DNA of 64,000 bases, taken from the NCBI GenBank assembly GCA_020724555.1, contig DYGT01000001.1, positions 65,197 through 129,196 on the forward strand. Reading direction: 5' to 3'. How positions within the stretch are numbered: the stretch's first letter is position 1; the number at the start of each line of letters is the position of its first letter. This DNA is from Candidatus Microgenomatus sp. (lineage in GTDB: Bacteria; Patescibacteriota; Microgenomatia; UBA8517). The notes beneath the pieces were generated by a model, which was given only the letters and a program-made list of their open reading frames with translations, was not told where the DNA came from and did no database searches. This document shows positions 59,857 through 63,618 of this stretch, piece by piece. The position numbers were made by a program, and so were the translations under genes.

Positions 59857-62800
59857 TTAGGGATGGCAGCTTAAATCGGTGGGGTACTTGGGCTGACAAC
59901 CGTTAAATATCGACGACATGGTTCTTGCGGTTTTGTCAGCATAACTTATGGCACTATTGTTTACGCTACAAGTTTCACTTGCTCCTTGCTGATAAACTCT
60001 GGAAAAAGTGCCTAAATTACAACCATCCTCAAAGCACTGACCATATGTGTTTGGATAATAATAAGGAAGACGTAGAAACCTGTTAAGTTGGGCTGCAAAG
60101 TTACCGGCTATAGACGGATCATTTATACCAAAGTCTTGCACTGTTTGGCTAGGTCTACTGGGATCGCAAGTGGTGATATTTGAGTTATAATTACTTGCGC
60201 CAGACTCTTGAATCCAAATAGCAAGCGTATAAATGGGATTTACTTGTGCCTCAAGCGACTTGCTGACAACGGTGTTATAACAGTATTCAACCAAACTATT
60301 TTCCCCTCCGGTTTCAACCCACCTTTTAGCCAGGTCAATAACGTTTTGTTTAAACACACCATCGTAGCCCGCGGGGATGGGTGCGTTCGGGTTACATTCA
60401 TCTGGTGTGGATTCGCACAAAACCCCCTCTCTATAATCGATATTTGAAGGTGGTGCTGTAGAAGATGGACACGCGATAGATTCAAAATAGTTATAGGCAG
60501 GGGCCAATGACTGTCCGATGGTTGATAAATTAATCCCTGCATCTTTTGGTCGCAGTGCCTTTTGAATACCCTTGAGGAAGTAATCGTAGATTGAGCCCAA
60601 ATGGGGAATATAAAGGCTGGCATTTGTTCCGGGACGACTTCTATTGGGATCACCGGCATTGGTTTCAGTAGCATTTGAGCTGTAGGATATTTTTGTGTCT
60701 GCAGGTATGTCTTTAATTTCCGTGACCGGCCGTCCCTCTCCAACTTTTGGGTAAATACGCTTAAATGTGGACATTTCACCATTTACATACCGCTCCCAAA
60801 GTTCTTCAATATTGGGAGTGTTTGTATAAAGGGAGAGTCCGGTAGACAACTCCACAGTACAGTTGCCATAACTGATACTTGGGATTGGTTCGCAACCTTG
60901 CGATACACATGCATCGCCGCCTGATTCGTGCCAAAAACCGTCGTCACCGCAAGTAAACTCGCGGCAATAGTCGCTTGCAGGTTCTGGTTGTAATCTGCAG
61001 GCAACGGCTCCGGGTGTGCTGCAGGTATAATCGGCTCCACTGCCGCCCGTTGTTTCTTGCCTTGGAAATGTACAAGTAAATTCTCCCGAATAAACAATAT
61101 TGCCTGTTAAGTGTGGGTTTTCGGGGTAATCGCCAAAAAGGTCGTCTCCTGGATTAGGGTTTCTGCTCTCCAGGGGTTCGCAAAAGTTTGTGTTATAACC
61201 TGCGGATTGTGTATTTTGGGGAATAAAATTGGAATCCACAAGCCATTTATTTTTTAGCTCGGTGTCAATGCCGGTCACATAAGTGCTTTGGATTAATGCT
61301 CCAAGTTCCGCTGTTTCCTGCATGTGGGGGAAAAATAAACTTTTGCTGTTTGTACCATCTTCGTCGTCGGGCACAAAAGATACTGTTTGATTTCTTAAGT
61401 CACTTGGAGGCTGCGTTTTGGCGCTCTGCATAGAAATTTGTCCAACCCTGTCTTCGGTAGAGGAATAGGGGATATTGTAAAAAAGCTCCCCCGGCCATTT
61501 AGGCAGTAGGTCCTCGCCCCCTGGATCAAAGCACCAGTAAACAAAACCCAAGCTTAAGCAAAAATCCCCGCGCCACTCTTTGTAAGCCATCCAATAGTCA
61601 GAAAAATTTTCGTAATTTTCTCTTAGTGGAGGCAGCTCTCCAACCCAATCGGTAAGTCTTTTGGTTTCCACTTTTACCTTTAAGTCTGGCGTTAACCAAT
61701 CTATGGCCGATCCAAAACTAACTTTGAGTTCGTCTAATTCATCAGAGGTGATCTCCATATCCCCATTTTCGTCTAGCTCTGGATAACAAGGACCGGGAGG
61801 ATTTGCATCCACATCTTTTCCTTTTGTAAAGCTGTCGGGGACAAGGTAATCCACAGGGCCCAAATTATTTAAAAAATTAAAGAAATCGCCTACGGTTGCT
61901 ATAGCATCAAAAAAAGAATTGTAGCCCTCTAGCTTGTATAAACACCCTACAATTTGGTTATGGCGTGGTCCGTTTTCGTCACTTTCTTTTTTGTTTTCCC
62001 CATCTTGGTTTATGTCTCCTCCCTCGGTTCTTTCTATCTCCTCTAACCTTTCTTTTGTTTGGACGTCTTTAGGAAGCATTTTGTTTAAGGGACCCGAGAA
62101 GTTTATCACCTCACCAGCCCTTTGCCGAAGAGTTTCGTAATCTTCGTCGCTTATCTCTTCCGGTTTCCCGGGATATTCTTCATAATAAACCGGCCGGTTT
62201 TCTTCTGCGCGGTAAACAGTGCCATTCATATACCAGCTTAAGTATTCGTTCATCCTTTGCGCATCTGTTAATGTCCCAAAAGGACGGTATTGGCTATTAT
62301 TAACATAAGGGCCTTGGGTCAAGCCTACGATGGGAAGCTCGGCAGTGCTTAAATCTACATCTACATGAATTTCGCGCTCATTAACTTCAAATTGACAAAC
62401 CATATTTCCGGCAATTTCTTCACAATCTTCCTTCAGGCTAATACCGGTGGGTAATGCACCTGCCCATGTGAGTTCAATTTTTTCTGTAGCTATTAAATCG
62501 TTTGCGCACATGGCGTAACTTACGGCTGGTTCGGGATTGCATGGGCTGGCTTGAAACGGCCGAAGTGAGTGAAAATCCATGTTGTCATAGACTTGATCAC
62601 AAGCTATATACGGAGGAGGGAATGGGTCTTTGTTTACGGGTATAGGAGGATGCGATATTGAACTGCAATTTTCTACATCTACTTCTGTGCCATCATGTTT
62701 AAATACTCTGCCTTCTATGTAGTACCACCACGTTTCACCAGTTTGACGTTTACCGTCGCAAATAGGAATGATTAAGGTTGTGGCCGTGGGCACATCCGAT

Positions 62801-63618
62801 GGTAGTTCGTGACTTTGGTACCATGCAACTTGTTCAGAAACGTCAGGGTTTTTACCAGGTTCCATACCCCAACCTTCAAAGTGTACAACAGGTGCACCAC
62901 ACATTTTTTCTTGCTGATATTGGTGAATATTAAGCCATGAATAGCGCCCGCCACCCACGGTGGGTTCGAGTTCAAAAATGTCTGACACATTTACATCTAC
63001 CCAGTCGCAAGTGTTTCCATAACTATTTCTATAACTTGTAAAGGCACTCATCCATGGATCTGCGTTATAGTTAGGGTTTCCCATAAATAAGTCCGGAGGT
63101 GCGGGTGCCAGAGGGTATGCATTATCTAAAGCAGCTGCAAATTTTATAAATTTATCTGCATAATGTCTGGCTGCGGTTTCAACCGAAACCCCCGGCTCGT
63201 TCCAAAACTCAGGGTCTAGATTGTTCATTTCGACCCCCAGAATTACAGCCTTTATTCCATTTGGAAATTCGCTCGGTCCAATTTCTTTCAACCGGAGAGC
63301 ATAATTGATAATTTCGGTATCTGGAGTGTTTGCGTCAATGTCTACACGTAAATAGATTGATGGATTCTGAGTTTTGTCGGTTATGGGGTTGAAAGGCTGG
63401 GTTTCTCCATGCCTTAAATAATTGATAACAGACACAACACCTGTGTAATTTTGTCTATAAACAACCGTATCGCCAGCTTTGGAAATTGCGAGCTCTGGAC
63501 CTATGGGATACACGCCACCCTGGGCTTTTACAGGAGTTTTGCTGTTTTGCCAAGACCTTCCCACCAAAAAAGAAATAGCTATCAAACTTAACAGAATTAC
63601 ATATTTTATCTTTAACAC
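59857..63618 (-). CDS. Giant secreted Cys-rich protein (1253 aa), candidate T4SS surface/adhesin or cell-wall-active component
   Basis: Signal peptide MLKIKYVILLSLIAISFLV. It is rich in Cys, Trp, Tyr, Asn and Pro. The C-terminal region has AIWIQESGAS, reminiscent of the lytic-transglycosylase ES motif (unverified). Confidence 0.55.
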   Translation of the reverse strand: MLKIKYVILLSLIAISFLVGRSWQNSKTPVKAQGGVYPIGPELAISKAGDTVVYRQNYTGVVSVINYLRHGETQPFNPITDKTQNPSIYLRVDIDANTPDTEIINYALRLKEIGPSEFPNGIKAVILGVEMNNLDPEFWNEPGVSVETAARHYADKFIKFAAALDNAYPLAPAPPDLFMGNPNYNADPWMSAFTSYRNSYGNTCDWVDVNVSDIFELEPTVGGGRYSWLNIHQYQQEKMCGAPVVHFEGWGMEPGKNPDVSEQVAWYQSHELPSDVPTATTLIIPICDGKRQTGETWWYYIEGRVFKHDGTEVDVENCSSISHPPIPVNKDPFPPPYIACDQVYDNMDFHSLRPFQASPCNPEPAVSYAMCANDLIATEKIELTWAGALPTGISLKEDCEEIAGNMVCQFEVNEREIHVDVDLSTAELPIVGLTQGPYVNNSQYRPFGTLTDAQRMNEYLSWYMNGTVYRAEENRPVYYEEYPGKPEEISDEDYETLRQRAGEVINFSGPLNKMLPKDVQTKERLEEIERTEGGDINQDGENKKESDENGPRHNQIVGCLYKLEGYNSFFDAIATVGDFFNFLNNLGPVDYLVPDSFTKGKDVDANPPGPCYPELDENGDMEITSDELDELKVSFGSAIDWLTPDLKVKVETKRLTDWVGELPPLRENYENFSDYWMAYKEWRGDFCLSLGFVYWCFDPGGEDLLPKWPGELFYNIPYSSTEDRVGQISMQSAKTQPPSDLRNQTVSFVPDDEDGTNSKSLFFPHMQETAELGALIQSTYVTGIDTELKNKWLVDSNFIPQNTQSAGYNTNFCEPLESRNPNPGDDLFGDYPENPHLTGNIVYSGEFTCTFPRQETTGGSGADYTCSTPGAVACRLQPEPASDYCREFTCGDDGFWHESGGDACVSQGCEPIPSISYGNCTVELSTGLSLYTNTPNIEELWERYVNGEMSTFKRIYPKVGEGRPVTEIKDIPADTKISYSSNATETNAGDPNRSRPGTNASLYIPHLGSIYDYFLKGIQKALRPKDAGINLSTIGQSLAPAYNYFESIACPSSTAPPSNIDYREGVLCESTPDECNPNAPIPAGYDGVFKQNVIDLAKRWVETGGENSLVEYCYNTVVSKSLEAQVNPIYTLAIWIQESGASNYNSNITTCDPSRPSQTVQDFGINDPSIAGNFAAQLNRFLRLPYYYPNTYGQCFEDGCNLGTFSRVYQQGASETCSVNNSAISYADKTARTMSSIFNGCQPKYPTDLSCHP

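Follow-up and report, generated by a model that had tools for sequence, protein, structure and literature searches.

Our analysis of a 64,000-nucleotide stretch of contig DYGT01000001.1 from Candidatus Microgenomatus sp. (the window) centres on a 1253-amino-acid (aa) protein, here called the giant protein, whose gene lies in a type IV secretion system (T4SS) locus. We consider it probable that this gene encodes a secreted, T4SS-locus-encoded protein with a catalytically competent lysozyme-type domain at its C-terminus. The wider reading, in which the giant protein is an exported enzyme of the T4SS pilus locus that breaches a cell wall, with a lean towards a host-facing role, we hold with a probability of about 50%. 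The argument is built on the modular architecture of the protein, on the conservation and predicted fold of its C-terminal module, and on the strict synteny of its gene. Within the window the protein is laid out as follows:

59857..63618, minus strand: open reading frame (ORF) of the giant protein, GTG start, 1253 aa, stop codon at 59857-59859
63523..63618, minus strand: predicted signal peptide, residues 1-32, composed of MLKIK, a hydrophobic stretch and VKA/QG (slash, predicted cleavage)
62623..63513, minus strand: N-terminal module (A3 type), residues ~36-332, putative glycosidase resembling glycoside hydrolase (GH) clan GH-A on the basis of its motifs
60514..62622, minus strand: Cys-rich core that defines the family, residues ~333-1035
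59860..60399, minus strand: C-terminal module, predicted lysozyme-superfamily domain, residues 1074-1253

The ORF, for which the coordinates in the preliminary description of this DNA proved exact, is set 37 nt after the pilin gene and 30 nt before the VirB6-like gene, and because it spans 1253 codons and has more than 70 homologues it is not a chance feature; public databases hold a protein identical to it (P0001). Residues 1-23 form the sole hydrophobic segment and are followed by the VKA/QG site, and homologues carry A-x-A sites at the equivalent position, so a Sec signal peptide is the straightforward reading, in line with the signal peptide named in the preliminary description. Also borne out is its view of the protein as Cys-rich: 32 residues are Cys (2.6% versus 0.52% across the window's 46 other ORFs, a roughly fivefold enrichment with a binomial p = 5.6e-13), and 13 of these are at least 89% conserved among 66 family members. 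Its description of low-complexity, W/Y/N/P-rich, beta-like regions was rejected on composition and an entropy scan, as the enrichment of P, Y, N and W is modest (1.4-1.7-fold), no 40-aa window falls below 3.2 bits, and the model of the core is mixed alpha/beta. The disulfide-rich repeats it suggested looking for likewise gave way to a single Cys-rich region that is a unique domain. The giant protein has three modules, is predicted to be exported by Sec and is probably stabilised by disulfides.

The evidence for a lytic function lies in the C-terminal module. The motif AIWIQESGAS, whose Glu-Ser pair had been likened to the catalytic motif of family-1 lytic transglycosylases, occupies residues 1133-1142, with E1138 encoded at 60205-60207. 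In an alignment of 12 divergent C-terminal modules (A1) the W, E, D-x-G and Cys positions do not vary. Cys 1195 and 1217 are conserved in the module. Across 32 A1-type modules E1138, W1135, S/T1139 and G1164 are each kept in 32/32 and D1162 (codon 60133-60135) in 31/32, and in a MAFFT alignment of the whole family both E1138 and D1162 remain at least 85% conserved. The two carboxylates are spaced 24 residues apart, with D1162 in the sequence Q-D-F-G. An AlphaFold2 model computed from the module alignment is all-helical (predicted local distance difference test, pLDDT, 82; predicted template modelling score, pTM, 0.84) and adopts an alpha-helical lysozyme/SLT-type fold in which E1138 closes model helix 55-66 at its C-terminal end. 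The catalytic acid of the lysozyme superfamily usually sits at the C-terminal end of such a helix. Structural comparison of the model gave its best score, 9.9 at 15% identity, with the GH73 glucosaminidase 8yxk, followed by MltF (9.6), MltC (9.5), a GH23 chitinase (9.1), MltE (8.6), g-type lysozyme (8.3), Slt70 (7.9), LytB (7.8), FlgJ (7.1), the Tn916-like CTn1-Orf17 hydrolase 4hpe (7.0) and EtgA of a type III secretion system (6.9). What had been proposed for the C-terminus therefore stands in part: the last ~180 aa are predicted to form a lysozyme-superfamily fold with an invariant Glu, and the assignment to family-1 lytic transglycosylases is not supported, given the missing SLT match and the GH73 enzyme as best structural match.

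Searches with the full protein of Pfam (E up to 0.1), NCBIfam, PHROGs and PDB sequences gave no match, and a search of PDB with the A1 profile returned chance matches only. Word-indexed profile searches of a database of 5.8 billion proteins added almost no members. Membership of GH23 family 1 finds no support: the SLT profile PF01464 does not match, only the ES pair is present, the position of GLMQ reads Q-D-F-G-I-N, and the A1 alignment has no AYNAG-like motif, which agrees with the absence of GLMQ and AYNAG already remarked on in the preliminary description. The GH73 profile PF01832 does not match the module either. The CHAP fold that had been put forward for comparison was not found, as neither a CHAP nor an NlpC/P60 domain occurs in the giant protein (Pfam, NCBIfam) or in its 39 homologues. 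The invariant D1162 fits a two-carboxylate hydrolase equally well as a lytic transglycosylase.

Relatives of the giant protein help to place this module. The C-terminal tails of 31 sister giants escape the A1 profile and form one cluster, with the signatures CNRESGG...DYSIGLFQIN or AIWAIETG...CGPMAIT. Two of the 10 sister tails tested, scoring 47.3 and 33.7 bits, pass the gathering threshold of Pfam SLT_3 (PF18896), which is 27; others give weak SLT or SLT_2 matches. About half of the family carries an SLT_3-type or other SLT-like domain in the C-terminal slot. With hhalign, E1138 falls onto the Glu of the sister subgroup without GLFQIN (E = 1.8e-4, probability 48%). Because the A1 modules have this model and this conservation and the sister tails are SLT-like, the C-terminal slot of the family appears always to be lysozyme-type. 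On the strength of the model, the module of the giant protein itself is a cryptic, previously unrecognised subtype of the predicted lysozyme-type domain.

The core of about 700 aa is present in every relative and, by BLAST and hidden Markov model (HMM) mapping, defines the family, which the ends do not; the preliminary description had overlooked this, as it had the glycosidase-like N-terminal module. The smallest family form consists of a signal peptide, the core and a C-terminal tail of ~200 aa (~720-880 aa in total). It is marked by the motifs FHSLRP, N-x-Y-x-SWY-x-NG, SSTED-x-x-G, H765-x-x-E768, NPGD-x-L and PH-x-G-x-x-x-YFL-x-x-IQ-x-x-LRP and by conserved Cys at 340, 360, 371, 399, 408, 559, 611, 813, 849 and 920, and residues ~560-650 form a poorly conserved acidic insert. 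The AlphaFold2 model of the core (pLDDT 72, pTM 0.75) is mixed alpha/beta with several strands of 16-18 residues, and comparison with solved and viral structures gave no match. H-x-x-E (765-768), S-S-T-E-D (719-723) and P-H-x-G (1005-1008, with H1006) are invariant, and these His, Glu and Asp motifs might point to a metal site or a catalytic one.

The N-terminal module is an optional accessory: only 5 of the 73 giants counted at species level have the A3 type. Its first motif reads G-V-E-M-N-N-L (consensus G-N-E-x-N-N), with the candidate acid/base E130 present in 83/83 sequences, and about 118 residues on a second motif reads F-E-G-W-G (consensus F-T-E-[WYF]-G), with E248 as candidate nucleophile; a Glu at 248 or 249 of F-[T/E]-[E/G]-[WYF]-G251 occurs in 61/85 N-module sequences. 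Clan GH-A enzymes have their acid/base Glu in N-E and their nucleophile Glu in T-E-[FYW]-G some 100-130 residues later, and this two-Glu pattern is present here. The module has no Pfam, NCBIfam or PDB sequence match, and a PDB profile search with the A3 profile gave chance matches only. An exhaustive HMMER search found it in 76 representative clusters among 1.84 billion proteins, nearly all of them with the module at the N-terminus of 1,000-1,400-aa proteins; none of the clusters links to a named family, and the sole named domain in distant members is another C-terminal SLT_2. Judged by these motifs, the giant protein probably has here a further glycosidase, one of the clan GH-A type, for another wall-associated polysaccharide. 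Other giants carry different additions: a NAGPA phosphodiester glycosidase domain (PF09992, E = 2.5e-34), two small orphan types, an added SGNH/GDSL-like domain in L003, and a module of ~340 aa (L031, L032, L048, L075 and others) with FTEFGDF near residue 150 and GPNEPATE near residue 320. The reversed order of the GH-A-like motifs in this L031-type module suggests a circularly permuted barrel.

The giant gene is embedded in a locus whose composition can be followed through the window and across related genomes. The neighbouring genes are:

63656..63982, minus strand: VirB2-like T4SS pilin, PF18895 match, last gene of an eight-gene array running past the window edge
58141..59826, minus strand: 561-aa polytopic membrane protein, candidate divergent VirB6, conserved neighbour downstream of the giant gene
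55632-58148, plus strand: 838-aa protein between the VirB6-like gene and PrgI, without family assignment
54451-55557, minus strand: PrgI/VirB3-like protein (PF12666) fused to a CarboxypepD_reg-like domain
53732-54454, minus strand: TrsD/TraC-like gene
51877-53835, minus strand: VirB4 ATPase (PF19044)
50385-51884, minus strand: 499-aa protein after VirB4, in the slot equivalent to that of PrgK, with central transmembrane segments and a C-terminal LAHESGH (HExxH)
48530-49669, plus strand: dnaN
46948-48327, plus strand: dnaA (PF00308, PF08299)

The family was traced with a database search that gave 39 homologous clusters, with a scan of one genome per species (10-sequence alignment as query; 73 loci returned), and with six-frame ORF calling and phmmer searches with the window proteins at 76 loci. 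It occurs in at least 73 species-level genomes, and those with informative names are nearly all Candidatus Woesebacteria or Microgenomates. Many loci with the typical Woesebacteria-type order come from metagenome-assembled genomes labelled "uncultured Gammaproteobacteria bacterium", which looks like a default or mislabelled taxon in a bulk submission. Across distant genomes the same order recurs: the pilin array, the giant gene, the VirB6-like gene, a variable opposite-strand gene, PrgI, TrsD, VirB4 and often the 499-aa protein and a 232-aa protein. A pilin gene is immediately upstream of the giant gene in 67/76 loci, a VirB6-like gene lies within 1.2 kb downstream in 56/76, and both are present in 54/76; among the loci that deviate, several lie at the end of a contig or have an ORF broken by frameshifts. 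The expected orthologues in other T4SS loci from Candidate Phyla Radiation (CPR) bacteria were thus found, and the observations that would have counted against the preliminary description (a non-enzymatic C-terminal fold, no conserved Glu, absence from syntenic loci) were not made. Its placement of the gene between a pilin (PF18895) gene and a polytopic VirB6-like gene is likewise correct. The inference it drew from that placement, that Gram-positive T4SSs put their VirB1/CwlT hydrolase or surface adhesin in this slot, is unsupported or imprecise: the hydrolase there follows VirB4 (PrgK of pCF10) or VirB6 (CwlT of ICEBs1), and the gene upstream of VirB6 in pCF10 encodes the adhesin PrgB.

Sequence divergence within the locus is uneven. 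When the proteins of the 44 loci with all components are compared with those of the window, the median identity is 74.5% for VirB4, 58% for TrsD, 46% for PrgI, 44% for the best pilin, 36% for the VirB6-like protein and 30% for the core of the giant protein, which is the fastest-evolving product of the locus and whose end modules are swapped among species. The 561-aa VirB6-like protein has no Pfam or NCBIfam match and is probably a highly divergent form of the VirB6 that the 2025 survey scored as "scarce" in Microgenomatia.

Several further features of the locus were observed. Most loci have an opposite-strand gene of similar size in the slot of the 838-aa protein, with sequence similarity detectable only among close relatives, and the C-terminal CarboxypepD_reg-like beta-sandwich on the PrgI/VirB3-like protein is a fusion kept in related loci. 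The 499-aa protein was considered as a zinc peptidase and dropped, its LAHESGH not being conserved in its 19 orthologous ORFs; in some other loci proteins of the post-VirB4 slot give weak CHAP or Peptidase_M23 matches. Upstream on the same contig is a series of eight divergent VirB2-like pilin genes that ends with the one inside the window. A conserved opposite-strand block upstream of the giant gene, composed of a SpoIID-domain protein, a ~230-aa protein, DUF5657 and a ~630-aa protein, is seen on the same contig (L080, 1-9018) and in L001, L003 and L005, and may belong to the same system. Because dnaA and dnaN directly precede the T4SS locus at the cumulative GC-skew minimum (~46-48 kb), the locus is chromosomal and proximal to the replication origin; an origin-adjacent chromosomal T4SS locus has been published for Patescibacteria (PMC12102498).

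In the reading we favour, the C-terminal module would act as a divergent lysozyme-superfamily glycosidase that cleaves the glycan strands of peptidoglycan, with E1138 as general acid and D1162 probably as second carboxylate. The N-terminal module would act on another wall-associated polysaccharide, and the core of about 700 aa may serve as a scaffold through which the enzyme attaches to the pilus or T4SS, or else to the envelope of its target. In this way the giant protein would breach the wall that the T4SS pilus must cross. As to whose wall this is, we lean towards that of the host, or at least towards an outward-facing role, over the wall of the producer, because the protein diverges rapidly, its enzymatic modules are interchangeable, its large conserved core is non-enzymatic, and other hydrolase candidates exist near the locus (CHAP/M23 after VirB4 in some loci, and the SpoIID gene upstream). 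A more speculative extension, rather unlikely as it stands, is that the core has a new fold and carries the muralytic domain or domains at the tip or the base of the VirB2-like pilus, so that the Woesebacterial T4SS would be a device for piercing the host wall, comparable to a phage tail-tip lysin.

Several observations weigh against the favoured reading. By sequence the C-terminal module belongs to none of the curated lysozyme families, the loop that bears D1162 is modelled at low confidence (pLDDT 49-62), and the hhalign comparison of A1 with the SLT_3-type subgroup, which gives the same register, is not significant (probability 0.2%). The second Glu of the N-terminal module is not invariant, the GH-A assignment comes from motifs without structure or HMM support, and hhalign found no relation between the A3-type and L031-type modules. 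Neither an LPXTG motif nor a C-terminal transmembrane anchor was seen in the giant protein, and the host-directed part of the reading draws on evolutionary rate and modularity and on nothing else.

Gram-positive T4SS hydrolases, namely PrgK (pCF10), TraG (pIP501), CwlT (ICEBs1), TcpG (pCW3) and the Tn916/CTn1 Orf17-type (4hpe), are among the closest known systems, and like the T4SS-associated hydrolases the giant protein is encoded within a T4SS cluster. An analogue of VirB1, PrgK or CwlT that works on the producer's own wall, opening Woesebacterial peptidoglycan locally for assembly of the T4SS channel and pilus while the core and N-terminal module only localise or regulate it, is a real but lesser possibility. 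Such an assembly factor would, however, not be expected to need a conserved core of 700 aa and interchangeable glycosidase modules, nor to be the fastest-evolving protein of its locus, and the CHAP/M23 proteins in the PrgK-equivalent slot of some loci and the upstream SpoIID protein are other candidates for the task. The giant protein also differs from the Gram-positive enzymes themselves: its lysozyme-like domain is C-terminal and matched by no Pfam or NCBIfam model, the CHAP or NlpC/P60 peptidase that usually accompanies it in Gram-positive VirB1 analogues is missing, the N-terminus is a signal peptide of the cleavable type instead of an anchor, the protein adds an orphan core of ~700 aa and an N-terminal GH-A-like module, and its gene stands between the pilin array and VirB6 instead of after VirB4 or VirB6.

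The position of the gene invites comparison with PrgB-type adhesins, which the giant protein resembles in its large size, its secretion, the location of its gene upstream of VirB6 and, probably, its exposure at the surface. It might on this basis be a surface adhesin or a pilus-associated host-recognition protein whose lysozyme-like and GH-like modules are catalytically dead lectins; we regard this as improbable, and the adhesin or Ig-like fold and wall anchor of a PrgB-like adhesin were not found in it. Patescibacteria, in which many biosynthetic pathways are missing, depend on scavenging (PMC11665869), and several glycosidase-like modules behind a Sec signal peptide in one protein would also suit a general secreted scavenger of polysaccharide or wall material that feeds the cell (with amino sugars, for example) and adjoins the T4SS by genomic position only. 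That explanation is very improbable, as adjacency to pilin and VirB6-like genes in 54-67 of 76 loci at only ~30% core identity would be difficult to account for if gene and T4SS were functionally unconnected, and the N-terminal module is almost never found outside giants.

The C-terminal domain can also be set against the catalytic families. From GH73 enzymes (the C. difficile endolysin Ecd09610, 8yxk; LytB; FlgJ) it differs in having no PF01832 match, in its 15% identity, and in a downstream half that is different and disulfide-linked. Against the GH23 family-1 lytic transglycosylases and g-type lysozyme (Slt70, MltC/E/F, GEWL) it lacks GLMQ, AYNAG and PF01464 and has an invariant D1162 that lytic transglycosylases do not require. 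With the "lysozyme-like domain" SLT_3 (PF18896) it shares the identical C-terminal slot in sister proteins and a Glu aligned across the family, whereas its own module is unmatched and the profile-profile link is not significant. The experimentally studied Saccharibacterial locus SEML1_0006-0019 has another layout, with no giant-type gene between pilins and VirB6.

In published work the T4SS of Saccharibacteria is reported to be indispensable for growth as an epibiont in the single species examined (PMC10633639), the function of the T4SS in Patescibacteria has been called completely unknown (PMC10633639, PMC11665869), and a survey found few VirB1 homologues and no adhesin near CPR virB4 and almost no VirB6 in Microgenomatia (PMC12102498). 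The giant protein is described neither in the 2025 survey nor in the paper on the Saccharibacterial locus. T4SS-associated lysozyme-like hydrolases are already known as such; the architecture of the giant protein, its orphan core and its lysozyme subtype are undescribed in the literature searched.

In summary, our work identifies the exported enzyme proposed here as a conserved and previously unannotated component of the Woesebacteria-type T4SS locus, one that would supply a muralytic activity and perhaps also the surface or host-contact role otherwise missing, and points to the adjoining gene as a likely divergent VirB6. With the A1-type lysozyme-like domain and with the core it also adds two sequence families that are absent from current profile libraries. 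The variable glycosidase modules are possible markers of host envelope type. If the T4SS does pierce host walls, the swapping of modules (two lysozyme-like subtypes, GH-A-like, NAGPA and SGNH) would track the chemistry of host envelopes, and the giants would be host-range determinants of the T4SS.

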